10,655 nt of DNA. It comes from a virus. Taxonomy: Duplodnaviria; Heunggongvirae; Uroviricota; Caudoviricetes. Positions 1-10,655 of the stretch are shown piece after piece (position 1 is the first letter of the stretch; the number at the start of each line of letters is the position of its first letter). The stretch covers positions 1-10,655 of IMG/VR virus record IMGVR_UViG_2690316115_000011; one strand, 5' to 3'. A program made the translations under genes and the position numbers. The notes beneath the pieces were generated by a model that saw only the letters and a list, made by a program, of their open reading frames with translations, searched no databases and was not told the DNA's origin.

Positions 1-69
1 ATTTTCAAGAACCGTTCTGACAGCTTCGGCTTTGAACTCTTTAGAGTAACGTTGGGTTTTTCTGCTCAT
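1..69 (-). CDS. IS3-family transposase OrfA, N-terminal fragment (runs off window)
   Basis: Reverse complement of 1-69 translates to MSRKTQRYSKEFKAEAVRTVLEN, a typical IS3-family OrfA helix-turn-helix N-terminus. AAGGAG sits 8 nt upstream of the ATG (revcomp of 67-69). Not in the ORF track because it is partial. Confidence 0.7.
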   Translation of the reverse strand, partial: MSRKTQRYSKEFKAEAVRTVLEN

Positions 70-133
70 TATTAGCTCCTTCTGATGCCATTCTATTTCA
101 GGAAGGAGTGTCCGTTAAACTCAGGCTACCTCA
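1..133 (-). mobile_element. Terminal ~133 bp of an IS3-family insertion sequence (IS600-like); element continues past the window start
   Basis: Minus strand of 70-133 reads TGAGGTAGCCTGAGTTTAACGGACACTCC..., a TGA-initiated terminus with a GGACAC core as I recall for IS3-family inverted repeats. It is followed by an AAGGAG SD and the transposase OrfA start. The boundary at 133 is inferred; 123 is an alternative. Confidence 0.55.
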
Positions 134-814
134 GAATGCTTTCCCTACAGATTCAGCCAGGCGACTAAGGTGATAGTTCGTCAGTTTATCCAGTTCATGA
201 TGCGCGGCGCGCACAGCAGTAAGCAGGCTCTGAAGGTAACTGTCCTCTGTGTCCATCTCCATACGGATCACGTTATTGCGTTGTTCTGGTGTGGCATGAT
301 GCCGGTATTTTCCATCTTCATCTTTGCTGAATAAGAAGAGGTGAAGGAAGCGATGAGTAAGGCTCAGAGTGGCGACGGGAATTTCACACTCAGAACAGTC
401 ATCGTCGCTGTCCGGGGATTCGTTTTTCTCCACATCATCCGGAATAGTTCCGTCCGGGTCATCGTTGTCATCGCCAGCAGTTGTGGCATCTTCACCGTTG
501 ATGTTGTCATTGAAGGGTATAGCCATCATGGTGATGCCATCTTCCCCGCCTTTTTCATAGCGGTTGCAGAATTCAGTATCAAACACGCCTTCCGGTGGAA
601 GGTCATTCACGACGGGGAAATTTACGCGAACGGGTTTTTTGAAATCATCCTCGTCGTAGCCTGCATCGTCCATGGCTGCAATGCAGCGGGAAACTGCGAC
701 AGAAAGTTTTCTGGCATCAGCCCAGAAAAAACCGCCTTTGATGCCAAGGCGTTTTCTGACTTTATCGTTTTTTGCTTCGCAGTGTAGTGCAAAAGTCTGT
801 TTATCAGCGCTCAT
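131..814 (-). CDS. Hypothetical, strongly acidic protein (227 aa as called); 3' end probably truncated by the IS insertion
   Basis: ORF track. Long D/E-rich central segment (DDAGYDEDDF...DDNDDPDGTIPDDVEKNESPDSDDD). Its stop codon TGA (revcomp of 131-133) is the first three bases of the putative IS terminus. Confidence 0.55.
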   Translation of the reverse strand: MSADKQTFALHCEAKNDKVRKRLGIKGGFFWADARKLSVAVSRCIAAMDDAGYDEDDFKKPVRVNFPVVNDLPPEGVFDTEFCNRYEKGGEDGITMMAIPFNDNINGEDATTAGDDNDDPDGTIPDDVEKNESPDSDDDCSECEIPVATLSLTHRFLHLFLFSKDEDGKYRHHATPEQRNNVIRMEMDTEDSYLQSLLTAVRAAHHELDKLTNYHLSRLAESVGKAF

Positions 815-893
815 TGTATTTAAACCTCTGGCTGGATTAGAATTAGAGGCCCTTTGTCTGATTTCTCCGAATACGGTGACGCAGGGAGAAATC

Positions 894-924
894 CGGTAGC
901 CTGCGCTGCCGGATTTTTATTTCA
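894..924 (+). terminator. Possible plus-strand intrinsic terminator (hairpin plus T-tract) between two minus-strand genes
   Basis: ccggtagcctgcgctgccgg folds as an 8-bp stem (one G-U pair) with a 4-nt loop, followed by atttttatttc on the plus strand. No T-tract in the minus orientation. Confidence 0.35.
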
Positions 925-1308
925 GTGGAAGGTTGCCTGGTTTGCTGTTTTGTGAGTTGTTTTTCCCTTTTCGTGCTGGCATTCAGAGCAGTCGCACTCA
1001 GAATTTTCTCTTGCAAATTCAAGAGCCTGCGCCAGTGTATGGATTTGTTGTGCTCCAATGTTGCTTCTGACGACTTCACATGCAGCATGAATATATGGGC
1101 TTGGTGTTTTGCCATTTAACCCACATGAAACCAAACGACTGTCTTTATATTCGTTATTTCCAACTTCTGTAAGCACTGAAAAAGAAAATACAAAGTCGAT
1201 TTTGTATTCTTTGCATATTTTACTGATGCGTTCTGCAATTTCTTTGAGTTCATTTATTGCATCAGGACTGGTTTCGGAAAATATTTCATTTTGCGCAAGT
1301 TCTTTCAT
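922..1308 (-). CDS. Hypothetical protein, 128 aa, with C-terminal Cys cluster (CDCSECQHE)
   Basis: ORF track; ATG at revcomp 1306-1308 with a weak GGAA SD. No family recognised. Confidence 0.5.
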   Translation of the reverse strand: MKELAQNEIFSETSPDAINELKEIAERISKICKEYKIDFVFSFSVLTEVGNNEYKDSRLVSCGLNGKTPSPYIHAACEVVRSNIGAQQIHTLAQALEFARENSECDCSECQHEKGKTTHKTANQATFH

Positions 1309-1381
1309 TTTGATTTTTCCGTGATTGATAATTAATGCGGTTTTTATTTCGGCAGATATGGAAGGTGTATTTTATTACTCG

Positions 1382-1601
1382 TCACAACGACTCTGCTTTT
1401 ACGGGTAAGCCATCGCGCCCGATGAAAACTTTAATCATGCAGTCGGTAATGCATGTTTTTGTTGTGAAGTTACGAATATAGAGTTTTCTCTTTTCAATAT
1501 TGTTTGCTGAAGCGATATATGTCCGACCTTCATGAAGAACATAATCGCCAGGCGTCACGCACTGACGTGGTATTTCATCAGTTCCGAAGTGATGAGCAAT
1601 C
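1382..1601 (-). CDS. Small protein, 73 aa from the internal ATG ([15 protein letters not shown]...); possibly a Kil-type host-division inhibitor (KilR-like)
   Basis: The ORF track start is a GTG; the ATG at revcomp 1599-1601 is preceded by GGAG at 8-nt spacing. The size and position in the leftward early operon of a lambdoid prophage match Rac KilR (73 aa), but I cannot verify the sequence from memory. Confidence 0.45.
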
Positions 1602-2060
1602 ATAATTATCTCCATTTTCACAAATGAACTTTGTTGATGCGGTGCCTGGTGCCTCCAGGTGGCGTTAACCAGTTAACAATTAACGCCGGGTCAGGGGACG
1701 ATGACTTTCCGTGACATCCTGTCGGTTTAACTGTTCCGCGTGCGCTGAGCCGCATTCACCGCATCACAAAATTCACTTTAAAAAGGGCGGACATCAGCAA
1801 TCGGCAAACCGATATCCGCCAAGGGTTACACACAGCAATGTTGTTATTCACAACCGGAAGCGCACGGTCGAAGAAATCTAACGACAATCCTTCTATGGGA
1901 AAGAGTCTTCGCCTCGCGCTTTCGTGTAGTACCCTGGCTTTTCAGGGTAATGTCTGTTCAGTAAAGTGAGAGTGCCGGAACTCACCCGTGTCCGGCGCAC
2001 GATCTCCACCTCACCCGTGGAGAACTCCTCAACTACAAACCCCGTAAGGAGAGTGAATTT

Positions 2061-2270
2061 ATGACACAAGAAGAAAAAGTGATGTTTCTGATGCGGCTGG
2101 CTGTCGATACCTACAACACACAATTCAGGGAGAAAGATATACCTCAAAAGGCAGTTCCTGCCGCGGTAGATAAGGGCGGTGCTATTGCCGTATTTTACGA
2201 TGCATTTGAATCATTTTTTGATGAAAAACTCGACGCTGTTAGCGACTTCGGAACATCGAGTAATAAATAA
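2061..2270 (+). CDS. Hypothetical 69-aa protein, convergent with the leftward operon
   Basis: ORF track. Strong SD AAGGAG at 2046-2051, 9 nt before the ATG. Non-repetitive, protein-like composition. Its 3' end overlaps the 3' end of the minus-strand gene 2239-2598 by 32 bp. Confidence 0.45.
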   Translation: MTQEEKVMFLMRLAVDTYNTQFREKDIPQKAVPAAVDKGGAIAVFYDAFESFFDEKLDAVSDFGTSSNK

Positions 2271-2598
2271 CGTTCATTACGGTTCTTAAACAACAATCAG
2301 TGGGCTTGATGTTGTTCTTTTCAAGCTCACTTGCCATCACTTCCATTATTCTTGCGCTTACACGAATTATTTGGTGGCTGTAAGCGACGCAACTATCGCT
2401 GATATTGCTGTTTATTTCTATTACTTCATTTTCACTGGCGGCGCTAAATTTGGATATGCCGTTTCCATTGTCCTGTTTCAGTGCTGTTTCCGCTATCCGG
2501 ATGCGTTCCTGCGTTGCGGAATTTGGGCTAAGTCGATAAACCTGTCTGGCATCTTCCAGAAGCAGGGCGATAATGTGCTTCAGTTCTGTTTCATTCAT
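2239..2598 (-). CDS. Hypothetical protein, ~119 aa (start moved to internal ATG, MNETELKH...)
   Basis: ORF track 2239-2619; GGAG lies 7 nt upstream of the ATG at revcomp 2596-2598, so that start is preferred. No family recognised. Confidence 0.5.
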   Translation of the reverse strand: MNETELKHIIALLLEDARQVYRLSPNSATQERIRIAETALKQDNGNGISKFSAASENEVIEINSNISDSCVAYSHQIIRVSARIMEVMASELEKNNIKPTDCCLRTVMNVIYYSMFRSR

Positions 2599-2629
2599 AG
2601 TTAACTCCGGTAGTTGCAATTTATTAATA

Positions 2630-3343
2630 TCAGGCGGTCAGCTCTTTAAGCTTCTGAACTGCTTTATTCATTTCATCCATACAGTCGATGAATTCGTCCA
2701 GTTTAAGCTGCATTTTTCCGGCGGCCTGAAGGATTTCAAGTTTTAAGGGCGCAAGTTTTTTGTTGAATGCATCATCTTCCTGGCGTTTTTTCTCCGCAAT
2801 TTCGGCGGCTTTCAGCAATTCTTCAGCCTGTTTTCTGAGTATTTCTGGTGAAGGTGAAACTGCTTTGAGGTTATTCATTTCAGGTTCCTGTTGTTGCAGA
2901 ATTAATTTGTTGCATTCTCTGCGTGAGCGTTTCATTGCAGATTCGCACTTCTTGCAATAAATGGCTCTCCCGTCACGCTTGCTGGCATCTGAATAAAAAT
3001 CATTGACTGATTTTGTCTGCCCGCATCTGGTACATAATTTTGATTGAAGGTCCTTAATGATTGTGACGTTTCCTTCCCGCTTGGGATATCCATATTTTTT
3101 GTAGCGTAAAAAGGTTACTCCGTTACCAGAACCTTCTTTTCTGACCTTAAATACAATGATGCTTTCCCGTTTATCGATAAAATCTATGAGCTGGTTTCTC
3201 TCCTTTCCTGACAGTTCGGCAAATGTCTTAACTTTTTTAGTAACTTCCGTAAGGCGAACTCCATCAGGCATTTTTTCAACGAAGTTTTTAATCTCTGCAA
3301 GCGGACGCCATAACTTTTGCGGCAAAACTGAAGGCGTGGTCAT
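2630..3343 (-). CDS. Hypothetical protein, ~237 aa, with CxxC...CxxC zinc-ribbon-like motif and K/E-rich probable coiled-coil C-terminus; translationally coupled to N
   Basis: ORF track. On the minus strand the N stop TGA is followed directly by TTG ATG; GAGGTGA sits upstream of that ATG (revcomp 3341-3343). Motif CTRCGQTKS...YCKKCESAMK. Confidence 0.6.
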   Translation of the reverse strand: MTTPSVLPQKLWRPLAEIKNFVEKMPDGVRLTEVTKKVKTFAELSGKERNQLIDFIDKRESIIVFKVRKEGSGNGVTFLRYKKYGYPKREGNVTIIKDLQSKLCTRCGQTKSVNDFYSDASKRDGRAIYCKKCESAMKRSRRECNKLILQQQEPEMNNLKAVSPSPEILRKQAEELLKAAEIAEKKRQEDDAFNKKLAPLKLEILQAAGKMQLKLDEFIDCMDEMNKAVQKLKELTA

Positions 3344-3346
3344 CAA

Positions 3347-3730
3347 TCACCTCGCCGTCAGTTGTTTTGATTTCCGGTAGCCTGCCGCGTAAATGGCTAC
3401 GTTTGGAAGACATACACCAGTTTCTGGTTGCTTATGTCCAAACTCATTCGCGTACACAATGGCTGCTCGCTCCAGATTGTGTCTGTATTCTTTCTGTTGC
3501 CAGATCACGTCCTGTGCCATGAACTTAATTGGCTTAGCGTCTTCTATGCGCTCAGGCGTTTCGTGAGTACCTTTAGCCTGAATCTGCGCTCTGCTTAGAG
3601 TAGGGCGGTGTAATACTTCTGAACTTATTGCTTCTTCGCGGGCCAGCACGCCGTTAGCTAATGCCTTTGCCTTTAAACGCTCACGACGACGAGAACGTGA
3701 ATTGCCTTTGAACTGAGTTCTGCGTGTCAT
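3347..3730 (-). CDS. N: N-type transcription antitermination protein (non-lambda allele, Arg-rich N-terminus; resembles Stx-phage H-19B/933W-type N from memory)
   Basis: First gene downstream of pL/nutL. N-terminus MTRRTQFKGNSRSRRRERLKAKALAN is an arginine-rich motif. AGGAGG lies 6 nt upstream of the ATG (revcomp 3728-3730). 127 aa. Confidence 0.8.
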   Translation of the reverse strand: MTRRTQFKGNSRSRRRERLKAKALANGVLAREEAISSEVLHRPTLSRAQIQAKGTHETPERIEDAKPIKFMAQDVIWQQKEYRHNLERAAIVYANEFGHKQPETGVCLPNVAIYAAGYRKSKQLTAR

Positions 3731-3895
3731 ATAGACCTCCTGATGAACTTTGGTGGTGTGGTAGGTGGGAGACCCATTTCGACCTGTTTCGGCCTACTTC
3801 AATTCGGCAATAGTCCCGCAGGCCTCGCCGCTTTACGTGCGACATATTCCCGTCCATGAACCCTTCACCACACCCCAAAGTTCACTTTGGTTATT

Positions 3896-3910
3896 GCGCT
3901 TTGTCAGCGC
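3896..3910 (-). promoter_or_regulatory. nutL boxB-like hairpin (GCGCU-GACAA-AGCGC on the leftward transcript)
   Basis: Plus strand gcgctttgtcagcgc gives a 5-bp stem and 5-nt loop GACAA on the minus strand, in the pL leader between pL and N. The loop is identical to the nutR hairpin at 6074-6088. An adjacent second dyad is gattcaaatatgaatc. Confidence 0.6.
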
Positions 3911-3978
3911 CGTAGATTCATATTTGAATCGTTGTATATTCACCGCCCTGGTGAGTAGTGCGTCCTGCTGATGTGTTT

Positions 3979-4041
3979 AGTATCACCGCCAGTGGTATTT
4001 ATGTCAACACCGCCAGAGATAATTTATCACCGCAGATGGTT
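3979..4041 (-). promoter_or_regulatory. Lambda-type OL1-OL2-OL3 operators with pL promoter
   Basis: OL1 tatcaccgccagtggta (3981-3997), OL2 caacaccgccagagata (4005-4021), OL3 tatcaccgcagatggtt (4025-4041). On the minus strand the pL -35 TTGACA is revcomp of 4002-4007 and the -10 GATACT is revcomp of 3979-3984. Confidence 0.85.
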
Positions 4042-4190
4042 ATCTGTATGTTTTTTATATGGATTTATTTTTTGCAGGGTTGAGTGGCTTGGGAGGTGAT
4101 CGAGAGATCTGAATTGCGATGTTTAGTGAGTTGTATCTATTTATTTTTCAATAAATACATTTGGTTATGTGTCTTTAGGTGGGGGGGTGA

Positions 4191-4219
4191 GGCAAAGAAA
4201 ACCCGGCTCTGTGGCCGGG
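4191..4219 (-). terminator. Intrinsic terminator ending the cI-operon transcript (timm-like)
   Basis: Minus strand cccggccacagagccggg (6-bp GC stem) followed by ttttctttgcc, immediately downstream of the stop of the 253-aa gene (4228). Confidence 0.7.
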
Positions 4220-4227
4220 AATAACAT

Positions 4228-4989
4228 TTAGGAATCAAGGTCAGGTAGCATGATTTTCTCAATCAACGTCAATGCCCTTTGGTCTCGTTCAGCAAAATAT
4301 TTAGGAGCGTACTGAGGCAGCCACACTTCGTTGAAGTGTTGTTTGAAATCTGCAAGATATTCGTTTGGGTATAGACGTACCGGGAATGTCCGGCCATCTG
4401 GGTACTCATGGTTATATGTTGGGAATGTCTTCGGCTCAACCCCCCGGTTGTCACGGAGCCATTGCGAGAAAACCCTACCCTCTGAAATATCAGGGACCAT
4501 TTTTTCTGGCAGCGTATATCCGGCCTGTTCAAGTGGCGCAACCAAGTTAAACGTCAGTTCATTAAGCATAGAAAAGTGCGTATGAGGAACTCTGCCTCGG
4601 TTTGTCATATACCGCTTAAGGTGGATAGGGAGTTCGGCAGGCGCTCTTTCACCTGACATCCACTCACGCACCCATCTCGATACTTGCACTGCAAATTTTG
4701 GAGATAGCCACTGAGCTAAATTAATTGCGATGTCTGGATGAACCCAAGTCCCTTGATTCTCTGCTCTTCCGCCTTTAAATGATTGAATTAACTCCGATAT
4801 GGGAATCCCCATATCGCGTGATAATTCATCAAAAAAATCTTGTGTTGTTTTTAGTCGTGTATAGTCAGCAAGTAGCTTCCCCGCAGACTTGCACATCGCG
4901 GTGGCATTGATGTATCCGTCTTTGGTGCGAAGATGGATGACTTCTCCATCAACTTCTCTAGCGATTAATGCAAGTTGAAACTGTGTCAT
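4228..4989 (-). CDS. KilA-N/APSES-like domain protein, 253 aa, with uncharacterised C-terminal half; occupies the rexA-rexB position; candidate exclusion/abortive-infection gene
   Basis: ORF track. Start is 31 nt after the cI stop with SD AGGATGA. Residues ~1-105 show KilA-N/APSES-like motifs (INATAMCKSAGKLLADY ... GGRAENQGTWVHPDIAINLAQWLSPKFAV), comparable from memory to the yeast Mbp1 APSES core. The rest is unrecognised. Confidence 0.75.
   Translation of the reverse strand: MTQFQLALIAREVDGEVIHLRTKDGYINATAMCKSAGKLLADYTRLKTTQDFFDELSRDMGIPISELIQSFKGGRAENQGTWVHPDIAINLAQWLSPKFAVQVSRWVREWMSGERAPAELPIHLKRYMTNRGRVPHTHFSMLNELTFNLVAPLEQAGYTLPEKMVPDISEGRVFSQWLRDNRGVEPKTFPTYNHEYPDGRTFPVRLYPNEYLADFKQHFNEVWLPQYAPKYFAERDQRALTLIEKIMLPDLDS
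4795..4816. repeat. 22-bp near-palindrome cgatatgggaatccccatatcg inside the KilA-N gene (codes DMGIPIS)
   Basis: 9-bp perfect inverted arms CGATATGGG/CCCATATCG. Matches 21 of 22 positions with the palindrome at 10624-10645. Confidence 0.9.
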
Positions 4990-5020
4990 AAATCATCCTA
5001 TTACGTGAAAAATAAAACAA

Positions 5021-5737
<717 letters not shown>

Positions 5738-5744
5738 TTAAATC

Positions 5745-5808
5745 TATCACCGCAAGGGATAAATATCTAACACCGTGCGTGTTGACTGTTTTACCTCTAG
5801 CGGTGATA
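5745..5808. promoter_or_regulatory. Lambda-type OR3-OR2-OR1 operators with divergent pRM and pR
   Basis: OR3 tatcaccgcaagggata (5745-5761), OR2 taacaccgtgcgtgttg (5768-5784), OR1 tacctctagcggtgata (5792-5808). pR -35 ttgact (5782-5787) and -10 gataat (5803-5808). Confidence 0.9.
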
Positions 5809-5834
5809 ATGGTTGCATGTACTAAGGAGGTTGT

Positions 5835-6035
5835 ATGGAACAACGCATAACCCTGAAAGATTATGCAATACGCTTTGGGCAAACCAAGACGGCTAAAGAT
5901 CTCGGCGTATATCAAAGCGCGATTAACAAGGCCATTCATGCAGGCCGAAAGATTTTTTTAACTATAAACGCTGATGGAAGCGTTTATGCGGAAGAAATAA
6001 AGCCCTTCCCAAGTAACAAAAAAACAACTGCATAA
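5835..6035 (+). CDS. cro: Cro repressor (66 aa), lambda type
   Basis: [64 protein letters not shown] matches lambda Cro from memory. SD AAGGAGG before the ATG. Confidence 0.95.
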
Positions 6036-6042
6036 GTAACAC

Positions 6043-6088
6043 CGCTCTTTTCACAATGGACATTCGTCCTACGTCGCTGACAAAGCGA
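6043..6088 (+). promoter_or_regulatory. nutR: boxA-like CGCTCTTT (6043-6050) and boxB hairpin UCGCU-GACAA-AGCGA (6074-6088)
   Basis: Directly after the cro stop. boxA matches the lambdoid CGCTCTT(A) consensus. boxB has a 5-bp stem and the same GACAA loop as the nutL hairpin. Confidence 0.65.
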
Positions 6089-6173
6089 GTCCCAAGATAT
6101 CTGACCAACTAAGGCCATATGCGTTTCCACGCATACCTTTCAACTAGCTATTCACTATTGGAAATCATAAGAA

Positions 6174-6470
6174 ATGACACAAACAAGTTACAGCAAACTA
6201 TCCCAGCGTGACGTTGATCGCGCAGAAACAGATTTACTCATCAACCTGTCAGCTCTGACGCAAAGGGGACTGGCAAAGATGATTGGCTGCCATGAATCGA
6301 AGGTCAGTCGTACCGACTGGCGATACATCGCGGCGATTTTATGCGCGTTCCAGATGGCATCTGATATCAGTCCGATCAGCCGGGCTTTCCAGCATGCCAT
6401 TAACGTTCATGCAAATAAAAAACGTCCGGTTGGGGCCGGACGTTCTGAGCAAATCCTGATGAATATCTGA
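6174..6470 (+). CDS. cII: CII-like transcriptional activator (98 aa), non-lambda allele
   Basis: Position after cro/nutR. Shares ESKVSRTDWR (lambda KSQISRWKRDW) and C-terminal NKKRP...RSEQI with lambda CII as recalled. Confidence 0.8.
   Translation: MTQTSYSKLSQRDVDRAETDLLINLSALTQRGLAKMIGCHESKVSRTDWRYIAAILCAFQMASDISPISRAFQHAINVHANKKRPVGAGRSEQILMNI
6413..6442 (-). terminator. oop-like antisense RNA terminator within the 3' end of cII
   Basis: Minus strand: 7-bp perfect stem cgtccgg/ccggacg with a 6-nt loop, followed by ttttttattt. Same location as the lambda oop terminator. Confidence 0.55.
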
Positions 6471-6540
6471 TATTCAGGCAGGGCATGGAGCAATACACGG
6501 GAATAATTCTGCCACATCTGGAAGAATTTCGCCAGCAACA

Positions 6541-6690
6541 ACACCAACCGCAGCAGCCTGAAGCCGATTGGGTTAACCCGGAGATACCGGGACCGTCTGT
6601 GAAGATGTGCAGTCACACCAATGTGCAGTCACACCAACCGCAGCAGCCTGAAGCCGATTGGGTTAACCCGGGAGATACCGGGACCGTCTG
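6541..6690 (+). repeat. Two ~60-bp direct repeats (6541-6599 and 6631-6690) with an embedded GGGTTAACCC palindrome; a 16-nt tandem repeat tgtgcagtcacaccaa x2 at 6606-6637
   Basis: acaccaaccgcagcagcctgaagccgattgggttaacccgg(g)agataccgggaccgtctg occurs twice, differing by one inserted g. Confidence 0.85.
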
Positions 6691-6723
6691 CGGTATGGAG
6701 TAAATCTTGTATGCGAGGGGACT

Positions 6724-7800
6724 ATGCGTAATTACGCAACAATTTCACCTCAGTTCTGGTTAGGCGATACAGGGCGAAAACTAAGGAAGTCTGGTCCGGA
6801 ATGTATGGTAGTGGCGTTGTATATGATGACCTCGCCTCATTCCAATATGCTGGGCCTTTATTACCTGCCTGTTTTGTACATTGCTCACGAAACCGGACTT
6901 GCTCCTGAAGGGGCTTCTAAGGGGCTTCAAATGGCTTGCGAGGCTGGTTTTTGCAGCTATGACCATGATTCTGAGGTTGTATGGGTGCATGAAATGGCAG
7001 CATGGCAGGTTGGTGAATCGCTGAAACCTGGCGATAACCGTTGTGCTGGGGTAAGAAATGAATATTCCGCGTTGCTGGAAAATCCTTTTTTATCATCCTT
7101 TTATGATAGATATAAGGATGATTTCCACCTGGATGTCAGACGTGAATCATGTCGGAAAATTGAAGCCCCTTCAGAGCCCCTTTCAAGCCAAGAACAGGAA
7201 CAGGAACAGGAAAGGGATAAAACCCTTCTGGTCCATGGCGAAAAAATCGCCACGGACCCACAGGGGGATTTTTGTCCTGTTCTGACTGAACGTCCAGGAC
7301 CAGCTGGCACGACACCGGAAGCAGATTCCGGGCGTTGTGTGCAGCAGGTGCTGATCGTCGAACCGGAGCAACAACGCCAACCGCAGCAGCCTGAAGCCGA
7401 TTCCGCGATGAGCGGGAAGCCGATTGGGTTAACCCGGGCGATGCCGGGACCGTCTGCGGGACGAGTTGATTATCCTGACGTGTTCGAACGGGTCTGGCGT
7501 GAATATCCGCATCGGGCAGGGTCAAACCCGAAGAAATCCGCGTTCAATGCCTGGAGGGCCAGATTACGCGAAGGGGTGTCACCGGATGTCGTGCTGGATG
7601 GCGTGAGGCGTTACGCAAGATACCTGGAGGCTACCGGGAAAGCGGGAACTGAATTTGTTCAGCAGGCATCGACGTTTTTTGGCCCGAACAGGAATTTCGA
7701 AAATCCGTGGTCGCTGCCGAAGGCTGGCGCAGTCAGCCTGCGTTGCGTGAATCACATTTCTGAACCGGACACCGAAATTCCGCCGGGTTTCAGGGGGTAA
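6724..7800 (+). CDS. Replication initiation protein (O-like, non-lambda; YdaU/replisome-organiser-like by position and motifs), 358 aa
   Basis: ORF track. SD GAGGGG before the ATG. Position after cII and directly upstream of the DnaC-like gene. Low-complexity acidic linker SSQEQEQEQE. Family assignment is from memory. Confidence 0.75.
   Translation: MRNYATISPQFWLGDTGRKLRKSGPECMVVALYMMTSPHSNMLGLYYLPVLYIAHETGLAPEGASKGLQMACEAGFCSYDHDSEVVWVHEMAAWQVGESLKPGDNRCAGVRNEYSALLENPFLSSFYDRYKDDFHLDVRRESCRKIEAPSEPLSSQEQEQEQERDKTLLVHGEKIATDPQGDFCPVLTERPGPAGTTPEADSGRCVQQVLIVEPEQQRQPQQPEADSAMSGKPIGLTRAMPGPSAGRVDYPDVFERVWREYPHRAGSNPKKSAFNAWRARLREGVSPDVVLDGVRRYARYLEATGKAGTEFVQQASTFFGPNRNFENPWSLPKAGAVSLRCVNHISEPDTEIPPGFRG
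7373..7456 (+). repeat. Third, diverged copy of the 60-bp repeat inside the O-like gene, containing a short internal duplication of gaagccgatt
   Basis: acgccaaccgcagcagcctgaagccgatt[ccgcgatgagcgggaagccgatt]gggttaacccgggcgatgccgggaccgtctg; the bracketed 23 nt is absent from the upstream copies. Confidence 0.8.
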
Positions 7801-7806
7801 TCAGCC

Positions 7807-8547
7807 ATGAAAAACATTTCGACTGGAGGGATTCTTGAACGGGTGCGCCGTCTGGCACCACCGCACGTGGCAGCACCGTTCCGGACGACCGACGAATGGC
7901 GGGAATGGCAACTGGCTGAGGGCCGTAAGCGCAGCGAGGAAATTAACCGCCTGAATCATCAGGCGCGGGTTGAAAAAATCCTGAACCGTGCGGGCATCCA
8001 GCCGCTTCACAGGAAGTGCTCATTCGGGAACTACCGGGTGCAGAACGACGGTCAGCGCCATGCTCTGAGCCAGGCGAAATCCATTGTCGATGAATTGATG
8101 ACCGGTTATACAAACTTCGTGTTCAGCGGGAATCCGGGAACCGGAAAAAATCATCTGGCGGCGGCTGTGGGTAATCGTCTGCTGAAGGCCGGTAAATCCG
8201 TGATAGTGGTCACCGTGGCGGATGTGATGAGCGCGTTACATGCCAGCTATGACGACGGACTGTCAGGGGAAAAATTTTTGCGTGAACTGTGCGAAGTGGA
8301 CCTCCTGGTTCTTGACGAAATTGGCATCCAGCGTGAGACGAAAAACGAGCAGGTGGTACTGCACCAGATTGTTGACCGCCGGACGGCATCACTGCGCAGT
8401 GTCGGGATGCTGACAAACCTGAATCATGCCGCAATGAGCACGCTTCTTGGTGAGAGGATTATGGACCGGATGACCATGAACGGTGGTCGTTGGGTGAATT
8501 TTAACTGGGAGAGCTGGCGGTCAAACGTTGGACGTCAGGGTATGTGA
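7807..8547 (+). CDS. DnaC-like replicative helicase loader (AAA+), 246 aa
   Basis: Walker A SGNPGTGKNHLAAAVGNRLL, Walker B DLLVLDEIG, then QIVDRR...GMLTNLN...LGERIMDRM...WVNFNWESWR. Collinear with E. coli DnaC as recalled. Confidence 0.9.
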   Translation: MKNISTGGILERVRRLAPPHVAAPFRTTDEWREWQLAEGRKRSEEINRLNHQARVEKILNRAGIQPLHRKCSFGNYRVQNDGQRHALSQAKSIVDELMTGYTNFVFSGNPGTGKNHLAAAVGNRLLKAGKSVIVVTVADVMSALHASYDDGLSGEKFLRELCEVDLLVLDEIGIQRETKNEQVVLHQIVDRRTASLRSVGMLTNLNHAAMSTLLGERIMDRMTMNGGRWVNFNWESWRSNVGRQGM

Positions 8548-8572
8548 GAATTTTTGACGAGGTAAATTTTCG

Positions 8573-9343
8573 ATGGAAACCGTATTACATGCACTGAAAG
8601 CGATGGGAAAAGCCAATTCTGTTGAACTGGCGGCACGACTTGATATCAGCCGTGAAGAAGTTCTCAACGAACTGTGGGAGCTCAAAAAAAATGGCGTTGT
8701 TGATAAAACGGGTCACACCTGGTTTCTGGCTGTCGAAGGTGAATCCCGGGTAACCGAAGAGCGGCCAGTAAAATCTGAAACACAGGATATGCTGACCGAA
8801 GAGGTCGCTCCAAAAGTTAGCGCTGACATGATGATTGAGTTTATCTCTCAGGAGGGGGCTAAAACCTGTGAGGAACTGGCGGGGAAGTTCGGTGTCAGCA
8901 CTCGTAAGGTTGCTTCCACGTTGGCGGTGGTAACAGCAACGAGACGCCTGGTACGCGAGATCAGCAACGGAAAATTCCGTTACAAAATGCCTGATGTCGA
9001 AAACGGCGATTTGAGCGCCTTATCATCGCAGAATAAGCAATCACACCATGACGCAGAAAACAGCGCGGCAGGCGATGAAATGAATCGTTTTCCGTTGGCA
9101 TCAGAGAGCACGGCAAAGGCCAGTACAGATGAGTTTATCCGAGAAGTTCCATCATTCACCGAAAAATCTGCCAGTTCGGTGATGCTTCCATCGCTGCATG
9201 CTGCCAGTCGAGAACTTCGTCGCGCCAAAAAACAGGTCCAGAAGTGGGAGCGAGTCTGCGCCGCGCTGCGGGAGCTGAACAAGCACCGGGATATTGTTCG
9301 ACAGATTGTCGATTCATCCGGTCGTATTGTGTCGGAAAAGTGA
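8573..9343 (+). CDS. Hypothetical phage protein, 256 aa, with two winged-helix-like segments
   Basis: ORF track; GAGG upstream of the ATG. No family recognised. Confidence 0.6.
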   Translation: METVLHALKAMGKANSVELAARLDISREEVLNELWELKKNGVVDKTGHTWFLAVEGESRVTEERPVKSETQDMLTEEVAPKVSADMMIEFISQEGAKTCEELAGKFGVSTRKVASTLAVVTATRRLVREISNGKFRYKMPDVENGDLSALSSQNKQSHHDAENSAAGDEMNRFPLASESTAKASTDEFIREVPSFTEKSASSVMLPSLHAASRELRRAKKQVQKWERVCAALRELNKHRDIVRQIVDSSGRIVSEK

Positions 9344-9358
9344 TTGCCGGAGGCGCTT

Positions 9359-9754
9359 ATGGCGAAACCTTTTACACACGAACAGCGGGAAGAACTGAAG
9401 GCACGAATTATCGGATTGGTACGCAAAAATGAACGCATGACGATATCGCAACTGGAGAGAGCGACGGGAGCAGGCTGGCATTCAGTCAGACGTTGCCTTG
9501 TGGATGTACTGGCTTGTGGCGATTTATACATGTCCGGTAAATACGGTGTTTTTGCATCAGAACAGGTGTATCGCGTATGGCGTAAGACACCGGAGAAAAC
9601 AACTGACCAGACATTGATTCGAAAGTTACCAGACGGAGAAATTCGCCGCTACGATAGACGCCTGAACATAATCTGTCGCGAGTGCCGGAATAGTGAAGTT
9701 ATGCAGCGCGTGCTGGCTTTCTATCAGGGGAATTTTCAGGAGGCGGTACTGTGA
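9359..9754 (+). CDS. Hypothetical phage protein, ~131 aa (start moved to ATG at 9359)
   Basis: The ORF track start at 9344 is TTG; GGAGG at 9349-9353 precedes the ATG at 9359. No family recognised. Confidence 0.55.
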   Translation: MAKPFTHEQREELKARIIGLVRKNERMTISQLERATGAGWHSVRRCLVDVLACGDLYMSGKYGVFASEQVYRVWRKTPEKTTDQTLIRKLPDGEIRRYDRRLNIICRECRNSEVMQRVLAFYQGNFQEAVL

Positions 9755-9810
9755 GTAAATTAGCTATCAGGCTTCAATTGTCGCTGGCATTCGCATCAAA
9801 GGAGAATGAG

Positions 9811-10395
9811 ATGACCACTTTTACAAAAGAGCAGTTAATCAGTCATGTTAGTGAAAATGTAAAGGCGATGAAATTTGCAGTAAAACAGACAGCATTCAAA
9901 AATTCTCTCGAGGCAATTGAGTTGGATTTAGCACTGGCCCTTGTTGCTCAGGCTTCGCTGGAAGCAGAGCCCGTGCTTTATATGAATCGATTTACCGGAA
10001 AGACATTCTCACTGGAAGAGCAACCCGGTGCTGATAAGGAACCGGAAATATACGTGCCGCTATATGCTGCCCCGCCAGACAGCGCCGCCATGCTTCAGGC
10101 TGGAAACTTTCGGGAAAAGAAGGGTTCGTCAACCAATAATTTTCGGGAAATCTCGGAAACGTCAACCAACCATCCGGTAACTCTGGATGGTTGGATAAGC
10201 TGTAGTGAGCGAATGCCGGATGACGGTCAGCACGTAATTATTTTATGTGATGGCGCATTCGTTCTTTATGCGCAATATCGAGACGGTGAGTTTTTTGATG
10301 TAGTCCGTGATGGTGATGAATTTTTCGAAACACAGAGCCGCAATGTAACCGACTGGATGCCGCTACCAGAACCGCCGCAGGAGGTGCGCCAATGA
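9811..10395 (+). CDS. DUF551-like phage protein, ~194 aa (start moved to ATG at 9811)
   Basis: AAAGGAG at 9798-9804 precedes the ATG at 9811. C-terminus DGWISCSERMPDDGQHVIIL...DWMPLPEPP matches the DUF551 signature as I recall it. Internal imperfect tandem NFREKKGSSTN/NFREISETSTN. Confidence 0.65.
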   Translation: MTTFTKEQLISHVSENVKAMKFAVKQTAFKNSLEAIELDLALALVAQASLEAEPVLYMNRFTGKTFSLEEQPGADKEPEIYVPLYAAPPDSAAMLQAGNFREKKGSSTNNFREISETSTNHPVTLDGWISCSERMPDDGQHVIILCDGAFVLYAQYRDGEFFDVVRDGDEFFETQSRNVTDWMPLPEPPQEVRQ

Positions 10396-10475
10396 ACTGG
10401 CCTGAAGCATTTGCAATTACAGGCGTTGCTATGGCTATCACCTTTTTAGTATATGTTATTTGTCGGTGGGGGTAA
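10392..10475 (+). CDS. Small hydrophobic peptide, 27 aa (MNWPEAFAITGVAMAITFLVYVICRWG), overlapping the upstream stop (ATGA)
   Basis: Found by reading; below the ORF-track size cutoff. One predicted transmembrane helix. No clear SD of its own (possible coupling). Confidence 0.35.
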   Translation: MNWPEAFAITGVAMAITFLVYVICRWG

Positions 10476-10510
10476 AAACGTTCGCCGGGATTAACACCAA
10501 AGGAGGGAAT

Positions 10511-10615
10511 ATGTCGGATGATATATCACTGGCAATGGAAGGTGCGCTGGCTGTTATTGCTGTTGTGGGCGTTTACTGCCTGGTTGTGTTTTTGATGGAT
10601 CGACTAGGGAACTGA
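10511..10615 (+). CDS. Small hydrophobic peptide, 34 aa (MSDDISLAMEGALAVIAVVGVYCLVVFLMDRLGN)
   Basis: Found by reading. SD AAAGGAGGG 4-5 nt before the ATG at 10511. One predicted transmembrane helix. Confidence 0.45.
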   Translation: MSDDISLAMEGALAVIAVVGVYCLVVFLMDRLGN

Positions 10616-10623
10616 ATTCATTA

Positions 10624-10645
10624 CGATATGGGAATTCCCATATCG
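10624..10645. repeat. Perfect 22-bp palindrome cgatatgggaattcccatatcg
   Basis: The two 11-nt halves are exact reverse complements. Differs by one base from the copy at 4795-4816. Confidence 0.9.
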
Positions 10646-10655
10646 GGTAAAAACG

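Follow-up and report, generated by a model that had tools for sequence, protein, structure and literature searches.

Do two tandem, very short open reading frames (ORFs) near the end of a prophage sequence represent genuine genes, and if so, of what kind? The question arises from positions 1 to 10,655 of the IMG/VR virus record IMGVR_UViG_2690316115_000011 (Caudoviricetes), a 10,655-nucleotide (nt) stretch to which we refer in its entirety as the window, and which is the immunity and replication region of a lambdoid prophage. The two frames, ORF1 and ORF2, are situated between a gene coding for a DUF551 domain and a hok/sok toxin-antitoxin locus that begins just past the window end. An earlier note had read them as small membrane peptides of the type I toxin or holin-modulator kind that belong to a repeated unit. 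We consider it likely that they are two genuine phage micro-genes, unrelated to each other, which code for single-pass inner-membrane peptides and sit at a recombination-prone joint between the Ea22/DUF551-type gene and hok/sok. Both frames, the start overlap of ORF1 and the Shine-Dalgarno sequence of ORF2 lie where the note had placed them:

10392-10475, plus strand: ORF1, a predicted single-helix peptide of 27 amino acids (aa), MNWPEAFAITGVAMAITFLVYVICRWG; from the ORF list, tblastn, the ratio of non-synonymous to synonymous change (dN/dS) and the start overlap
10499-10507, plus strand: Shine-Dalgarno sequence of ORF2, AAAGGAGGG; read from the sequence, 3 nt upstream of the ATG
10511-10615, plus strand: ORF2, a predicted single-helix peptide of 34 aa, MSDDISLAMEGALAVIAVVGVYCLVVFLMDRLGN; from PGAP, ribosome profiling and selection tests

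ORF1 is a micro-gene under purifying selection

ORF1 is clearly a genuine protein-coding micro-gene under purifying selection. It starts with an ATG (10392-10394) that shares bases with the TGA stop of the DUF551 gene (10393-10395), as ATGA, and tblastn searches with the peptide returned matches in 92 phage and 227 plasmid records (e.g., 933W, VT1-Sakai, VT2-Sakai, BP-4795, Min27, the P1-like SJ46 and the Vequintavirinae phage Av-05), a spread that takes in lambdoid, Shiga-toxin (Stx), P1-like and Vequintavirinae phages. A pattern search of the fetched loci, which are mostly viral contigs, recovered 36 distinct ORFs, of which one is a chance match and 35 are ORF1-like, with lengths of 24-28 aa. 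The family is marked by the motif M-x-W-P-E-A-F ... I-C-R-W-G, and the frame, the start overlap and the motif are kept across at least 10 different flanking contexts. The ATG overlaps the upstream stop, as ATGA or TAATG, in nearly all copies (the exception, contig L071, has the stop 6 nt upstream), and codon 2 is AAC, ATC, ACC, AGC or AGT in 28/28 full-length variants; being always A-initial, it leaves the ATGA overlap intact. The gene upstream is usually of the Ea22/EaA type, with either DUF551 or a different domain at its C-terminus, and an upstream ORF of another kind takes this place in SJ46 and in contigs L014 and L071. Nor is ORF1 in any way tied to hok.

Comparison of deep clades gave proportions of synonymous differences (pS) of 0.6-0.78 and of non-synonymous differences (pN) of about 0.2, with a dN/dS of 0.12-0.25. 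Variable columns at codon positions 1/2/3 number 13/10/23, and indels are in frame. G11, A13, C24 and R25 are invariant, W26 and G27 are present in 27/28 variants, and the conserved residues are each encoded by 2-4 synonymous codons, except for W26, tryptophan having a single codon. None of this conservation was forced by the pattern behind the 36 ORFs; G11 was part of the pattern of an earlier scan that recruited many of the loci.

ORF1 lacks annotation in Escherichia coli ML35, in most genomes and in reference phages such as 933W, and an exact look-up in a 15-billion-sequence collection returned the O157 variant, with the exact window peptide absent. A scan of species-representative genomes with the ORF1 pattern gave four matches; three are chance occurrences inside longer frames, and the fourth, from a Pseudobdellovibrionaceae metagenome-assembled genome (MAG), reads MTWPEAFAIVGVA and opens a longer protein, which is of no help for the taxonomy of ORF1. 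We also observed that codon 17 (10440-10442), in the middle of the helix, encodes Thr (ACC) in the window, Asp (GAT) in the common O157 variant and Ala (GCT or GCG) in most others; a mid-segment Asp is unusual for a 19-residue hydrophobic segment.

ORF2 is a translated small protein of E. coli-type prophages

Ribosome footprints, a ribosome-binding site and purifying selection together identify ORF2 as a genuine translated small protein. PGAP assigns it as WP_001278450.1 in every relative that we fetched, and it equals ECs_5710 in the Sakai prophage Sp6. A longer version of the frame, XECs145, which takes in ORF2 plus an N-terminal extension and has a predicted inner-membrane location, is among the intergenic Sakai ORFs (30 aa or longer) for which Huecker et al. 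2017 (PMC5597208) obtained ribosome-profiling signal. For XECs145 that study lists the following values, in which RPKM stands for reads per kilobase per million mapped reads:

Lysogeny broth (LB): RNA RPKM 79.1, footprint RPKM 346.1, ribosome coverage value 4.35, coverage 0.99
Brain heart infusion (BHI), control: RNA RPKM 121.3, footprint RPKM 150.1, ribosome coverage value 1.14, coverage 0.84
BHI, stress: RNA RPKM 73.3, footprint RPKM 1.1, ribosome coverage value 0.01, coverage 0.37

ORF2 is therefore densely occupied by ribosomes in healthy, uninduced lysogens.

We distinguish two subtypes. Subtype A, to which the window belongs, has an ATG start and 34 aa, and its Shine-Dalgarno sequence is kept in all copies, with a single variant, AAGGGAGGG. 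Subtype B, from mEp460-like phages, has 29 aa (MLVLKCALAIAAVMAIYCLAVVLMDRLSD), with a GTG start in 20/20 variants and an AGGAGG ribosome-binding site. Variable columns at codon positions 1/2/3 number 6/5/12 in type A and 8/4/14 in type B, and non-synonymous to synonymous change per site stands at 0.33 and 0.35, respectively (binomial p = 0.006 each); between the types, pS is 0.58, pN 0.28 and dN/dS 0.31. The frames of both ORFs are thus conserved in relatives, as the earlier note had asked of real genes, and ORF2 has published ribosome profiling besides. Its family is narrow and restricted to E. coli-type prophages: the database relatives are all E. coli-type with at least 78% identity, and an exhaustive HMMER search gave 7 matches at E <= 0.001 among 1.84 billion cluster representatives, all near-identical and from E. 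coli. The large protein search for ORF2 was run with the 51-aa TTG-extended reading.

Two kinds of structural variant touch the pair. E. coli O55:H7 TB182A (L007 1327-1538) has a tandem duplication of ORF2 with a 107-bp unit; both copies are annotated by PGAP, and the second has a TTG start and is without a ribosome-binding site. ORF1 ends in a run of five Gs (10468-10472), and three metagenome or SRA assemblies (L315-L317, with L387 and L388 also compared) have six; the extra base puts ORF1 and ORF2 in one frame, as a fusion protein of 74 aa that has two hydrophobic segments (P0008, P0009). The -1 frame has no stop between 10406 and its entry into ORF2. As the source of the fusions, a programmed -1 frameshift at G GGG G TAA was dropped, as complete genomes of the same lineage have five Gs and separate ORFs; from the sequences at hand, the fusion would be either a homopolymer polymorphism or an assembly error.

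Predicted membrane topology and family searches

The hydrophobicity that the earlier note had seen in each peptide exceeds chance. Among the 63 ATG-initiated ORFs of 20-45 aa in the six frames of the window, ORF2 ranks first by its best 17-residue Kyte-Doolittle mean (2.95) and ORF1 third (2.34); shuffled windows contained 0.04 ORFs scoring at least 2.5. Each peptide is predicted to form one transmembrane helix, and most likely the acidic N-termini (MNWPE in ORF1 and MSDDISLAMEG in ORF2) would face outside, with the Arg-containing C-termini (CRWG and MDRLGN) in the cytoplasm.

Searches of Pfam, NCBIfam, PHROGs and PADLOC gave sub-threshold matches only, and these were to generic transmembrane segments (PTR2, OadG_rel_small, KdpF, SecE and phrog_38566). 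Neither peptide has a Pfam match to the Hok/Gef family (PF01848), and both are absent from the supplements of 'The Cryptic Bacterial Microproteome'. BLASTP gave no alignment between ORF1 and ORF2, on which ground we rejected the notion that the two are a duplicated unit; likewise, ORF2 and the neighboring HokD gave no BLASTP alignment at E <= 100, and ORF2 was rejected as a Hok relative.

A probable split junction upstream of hok

The last 356 bases of the window are 100% identical to the chromosome of E. coli ML35, and the segment 10385-10655, with ORF1 and ORF2, is found at no less than 80% coverage in 674/5426 complete E. coli genomes. A complete hok/sok type I toxin-antitoxin locus begins 37 nt beyond the window end (L001 12393-12807, corresponding to window position 10692 onward), with sok at L001 12393-12567 (116.9 bits to the Rfam model, E = 1.7e-27) and the hokD coding sequence at L001 12562-12717. 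The features between ORF1 and this locus are:

10470-10480, plus strand: left 11-mer, GGGTAAAAACG; the last codon and stop of ORF1 (GGG TAA) followed by AAAACG
10481-10644, plus strand: cassette body, with the Shine-Dalgarno spacer, ORF2 and the palindrome; absent from the direct ORF1-hok arrangement
10624-10645, no strand: 22-bp perfect palindrome, CGATATGGGAATTCCCATATCG, between the ORF2 stop and the right 11-mer
10645-10655, plus strand: right 11-mer, GGGTAAAAACG; starts 29 nt after the ORF2 stop, beyond the palindrome, at about -47 to -37 of the putative hok promoter

The 11-mer occurs exactly twice in the window, and 200 dinucleotide-preserving shuffles gave an expectation of none. Both copies lie at the positions given in the earlier note, which had each ORF followed by one; the left copy does not follow ORF1, as it contains its last codon and stop. 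This left copy is invariant in seven E. coli relatives. On the right, the A-tract falls at the position expected for an UP element of the putative hok promoter (TTGCGG-N16-TAGAAT, whose +1 would lie some 37 nt beyond the window), and many hok loci are preceded by a conserved core AAAACGG(T/C)TTGC but not by the full 11-mer. The start-to-start spacing is 175, the cassette body plus the right 11-mer making up a 175-bp repeat period.

The meaning of the pair emerged from other hok loci. We classified 76 evaluable loci, sampled from viral contigs, by their arrangement upstream of hok:

ORF1 only: 15/76
ORF1, ORF2 type A and palindrome (the arrangement of the window): 7/76
ORF2 type B: 8/76
Unclassified ORF2-like: 2/76
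Palindrome only: 5/76
Other: 39/76

Phage 933W and 13/15 of the ORF1-only loci have the ORF1 stop joined directly to the hok promoter (...TGGGGATAAAAACGGTTTGCGG...GTTAAGTAGAAT), the hok -10 element following TGGGGATAAAAACGGTTTGCGG. This direct junction equals the left flank of the window up to TAAAAACG plus the right flank from AAAAACGGTTTGCGG, with an overlap on TAAAAACG; the two 11-mers thus correspond to halves of an ORF1-stop/hok-promoter junction. Most likely, the pair marks such a junction split around a 175-bp cassette of ORF2 plus palindrome, a better reading of the 11-mers than the repeated unit of the earlier note, whose two ORFs are not homologous.

The palindrome is separable from ORF2, as type B loci have ORF2 and hok without it, and PPompW phages have palindrome and hok with just the last seven bases of ORF2 left. 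A one-mismatch copy lies in the KilA-N gene of the window (4796-4815), where it encodes DMGIPIS. An exact 18-mer of the palindrome recurs in over 100 viral contigs, many of them unrelated and some from giant-virus MAGs, with G+C contents of 21%-66% in the 69 newly fetched; the ORF around such a copy often encodes the DMGIPIS...GTWVHP motif that the KilA-N protein of the window has (flanks read by eye, no tally), and the exact retention of the 18 nucleotides may be an effect of contig selection. Next to ORF2, the palindrome resembles a short piece derived from KilA-N and placed at a recombination joint. As RNA it would form a 9-bp hairpin (-15.4 kcal/mol, z = -2.3); an intrinsic terminator was rejected, the hairpin being stable but the U-tract missing on both strands. 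In PPompW prophages (L011 649-1395), a paa/adfO adhesin-like gene replaces the sequence upstream of the palindrome-hok module, and other hok loci retain a 3' remnant of type B ORF2. These replacements and remnants mark the DNA immediately upstream of hok as a hot spot of mosaic joints.

Linkage of ORF2 to hok

All 71 ORF2 homologues in a sample recruited by the ORF2 pattern alone, with hok not used (35 type A, 36 type B), have a hok leader or coding sequence downstream, and the hok leader follows at a constant 74 nt in type A and 40 nt in type B. As the 40-nt gap of type B is filled by the hok promoter, with no room for a terminator, ORF2 transcripts would be expected to enter hok. An exception to the linkage comes from E. 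coli SCU-106 and S19-651 (L387 and L388, 1359-2274), where ORF2 is intact and hok is gone: the junction lies in the hok -10 element (TAGAAT -> TAGATG) and is followed on the opposite strand by ibrB-like and PAPS-reductase (ibrA-like) genes. This ORF2 differs from that of the window by eight synonymous and three conservative changes.

Weighing the explanations

We posit that ORF1 is made by termination-reinitiation coupling at the ATGA overlap; given such coupling, it should be made whenever the upstream gene is translated. ORF2 has its start at a strong ribosome-binding site of its own and is translated in uninduced lysogens at levels harmless to growth, and its transcript probably continues into hok because there is no terminator between them. 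Whatever their cellular target, both peptides are most likely small-protein modulators of membrane processes, comparable to accessory 'moron' genes, rather than toxins or lysis regulators. The 175-bp cassette of ORF2 and the palindromic KilA-N-like fragment would have split an older ORF1-stop/hok-promoter junction, or would be deleted elsewhere.

Several observations weigh against this account. Neither ORF has a Pfam, NCBIfam, PHROGs or PADLOC family above threshold. ORF1 is disrupted in some copies, by a TAG at codon 3 in POCJ13, by ATA for ATG in 8 P1-like contigs and by a frameshift in one contig, and is thus dispensable in some lineages. With 27 aa it fell below the 30-aa cut-off of the Sakai profiling study and so outside direct translation evidence; the extended XECs145, with its 0.99 coverage, includes the final 24 nt of ORF1, no more than a hint of ORF1 translation. 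The Sakai reads for ORF2 may themselves suffer from multi-copy mapping, as O157 genomes have up to 4-5 related places, and a consensus promoter scan gave no promoter driving ORF2 in lysogens. As to the junction, the right 11-mer is not conserved in relatives (GGACGAAAACG, GGGCAAAAACG), so the exact 11/11 identity is lineage-specific, and the cassette event could be either an insertion here or a deletion elsewhere via microhomology.

The tight linkage of ORF2 to hok raises another explanation, which we regard as unlikely, namely that ORF2 (or ORF1 in 933W-type loci) is a functional accessory of hok/sok, as a peptide that tempers Hok or as a translated leader that alters hok/Sok expression. In its favor are the presence of hok sequence just downstream of 71/71 sampled homologues, the fixed spacing of the two, the persistence of the linkage over 37% nucleotide divergence and differing junction architectures, the asymmetry by which hok is often without ORF2 yet ORF2 is almost never alone, and the type B geometry, in which the mRNA must run into hok through the promoter-occupied gap. 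However, ORF2 has stayed intact and under purifying selection in the SCU-106/S19-651 lineage, where ibrBA takes the place of hok from the -10 element on, ORF2 accompanies only about one fifth of the sampled hok loci, the two lie so close (40-74 nt) that proximity alone may explain their association, and ORF2 has no sequence similarity to Hok. It is doubtful, in the same vein, that hok/sok has extended forms with one or two micro-peptides (ORF2, and ORF1 in the 933W type) co-transcribed upstream and acting with hok, for example as membrane partners tempering or conditioning Hok, or as a translated leader coupling hok to upstream transcription. Were it so, the in-frame ORF1-ORF2 fusions of the three assemblies would hint at a working pair.

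An accidental origin, with frames that are open and translated by chance and conserved by hitch-hiking with the end of the DUF551 gene, with the flank of the hok promoter or through recent common ancestry, is improbable. It would account for the narrow ORF2 family (the 7 HMMER matches), for several stretches that are invariant even at synonymous sites and for the disrupted ORF1 copies, but it is at odds with the excess of third-position and synonymous change in both ORFs, with the retention of the ORF1 frame, overlap and motif in at least 10 flanking contexts and four phage groups, and with the GTG start and ribosome-binding site in 20/20 type B variants. We give a slim chance to the type I toxin proposal of the earlier note, by which one or both ORFs would code for a small membrane-damaging peptide; an antisense RNA would then have to silence it. 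The peptides are small and hydrophobic, their prophage region is rich in toxin-antitoxin systems (hokD and Doc-family and RelE/ParE-family loci within 2 kb), and the minus strand has two weak promoter-like sites, across from where ORF2 starts and ORF1 ends; minus-strand sites of this kind, however, number 3 vs 2.0 +/- 1.3 expected. Further, an Rfam scan of the region gives sok alone, downstream of both ORFs (an undescribed RNA being possible), and no match to Hok or to another toxin family was obtained for either peptide. The mRNA architecture also speaks against the proposal: ORF1 lacks its own leader and is coupled to the gene before it, and the ribosome-binding site of ORF2 is strong and exposed, with the ribosome coverage value of 4.35 reached in exponential growth. 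The other proposal, of holin modulators or antiholins that tune lysis timing, has the small size and hydrophobicity of these phage peptides as its sole point in favor, and its probability is minimal. The ORFs lie in the early replication/nin region, about 10 kb ahead of the holin, lysozyme and spanin genes, which follow Q. Translation of ORF2 takes place in uninduced lysogens and hence at the wrong time, ORF1 also occurs away from lysis genes (on P1-like plasmids and, in 933W, in the early-left 'ea' region), and both peptides are far shorter than known holins.

Genomic setting

The gene order of the window is a KilA-N gene, repressor, cro, cII, two replication genes, DUF1627, DUF977 and DUF551, the last of which immediately precedes ORF1:

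9751-10395, plus strand: Ea22/EaA-type early gene with a C-terminal DUF551 domain; from the ORF list, Pfam DUF551 (E = 1.1e-20) and PGAP (WP_000206792.1)

Mechanically, this ORF (214 aa) runs from a GTG at 9751; PGAP begins the gene at the ATG at 9811, for which there is a GGAGAA ribosome-binding site. Other Ea22-type proteins that precede ORF1 homologues have the same N-terminus, MTTFTKEQLI. Within a further 2 kb or less past hok/sok are a Doc-family toxin gene with a small ORF before it and a pair of a RelE/ParE-family gene and a helix-turn-helix (HTH) gene, and with these three loci past its end the window ends at the margin of an island in the nin region that is rich in toxin-antitoxin loci. 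The lysis cassette of holin, lysozyme and lysis-protein genes lies at L001 22364-23911, behind the antiterminator Q gene.

Comparison with known systems

As a gene, ORF2 is nothing new, because it is already annotated with ribosome-profiling support: XECs145, ECs_5710 and WP_001278450.1 are the same protein, without sequence difference. What is added here is its near-constant place directly upstream of hok/sok and its diverged GTG-start subtype, as the earlier XECs145 study mentions neither the hok linkage nor the type B relatives. ORF1 is the more useful result, being a family of 24-28-aa peptides with protein-level selection in at least four phage groups that is missing from Pfam, NCBIfam and PHROGs. 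It is otherwise an ordinary kind of micro-gene, and a concrete case of phage small-protein content that annotation pipelines miss. The interpretation of the locus is also corrected, in that a real type I toxin adjoins the two ORFs and the 11-mer repeat has an explanation. If either peptide were to act with Hok, which is a minority possibility, the two-RNA-plus-toxin picture of the textbook type I system would change.

Hok/Gef and the other type I toxins of E. coli (TisB, Ldr, Ibs, ShoB, ZorO and DinQ) are small single-helix inner-membrane peptides that are found on mobile elements. ORF1 and ORF2 are like them in size and predicted single helix, and have a true hokD/sok as their immediate downstream neighbor, but differ from them in having no sequence similarity, antisense RNA match or folded leader, and in the good translation of ORF2 during growth. 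The lambda S105/S107 pair, a lambdoid holin and antiholin, likewise consists of hydrophobic phage peptides; ORF1 and ORF2 are far shorter, differ in operon and timing, and lie about 10 kb from an annotated class II holin downstream.

Another parallel is offered by AcrZ, MgtS and KdpF, small membrane proteins that have been validated in bacteria and that modulate larger ones. The two phage peptides share with these their size range, a predicted single transmembrane helix and expression without toxicity; they differ in lacking homology or a known partner and in their phage rather than chromosomal core-gene setting, and the sub-threshold matches to KdpF and to the OadG-related small subunit reflect composition only. 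A phage counterpart is the superinfection-exclusion protein gp15 of HK97, a 'moron' membrane protein expressed from the prophage. ORF2 is much smaller than gp15, and our scan identified no promoter/terminator pair of its own; nevertheless, it resembles moron proteins in being a prophage accessory gene that is expressed in the lysogen and whose product is predicted to be located in the membrane.

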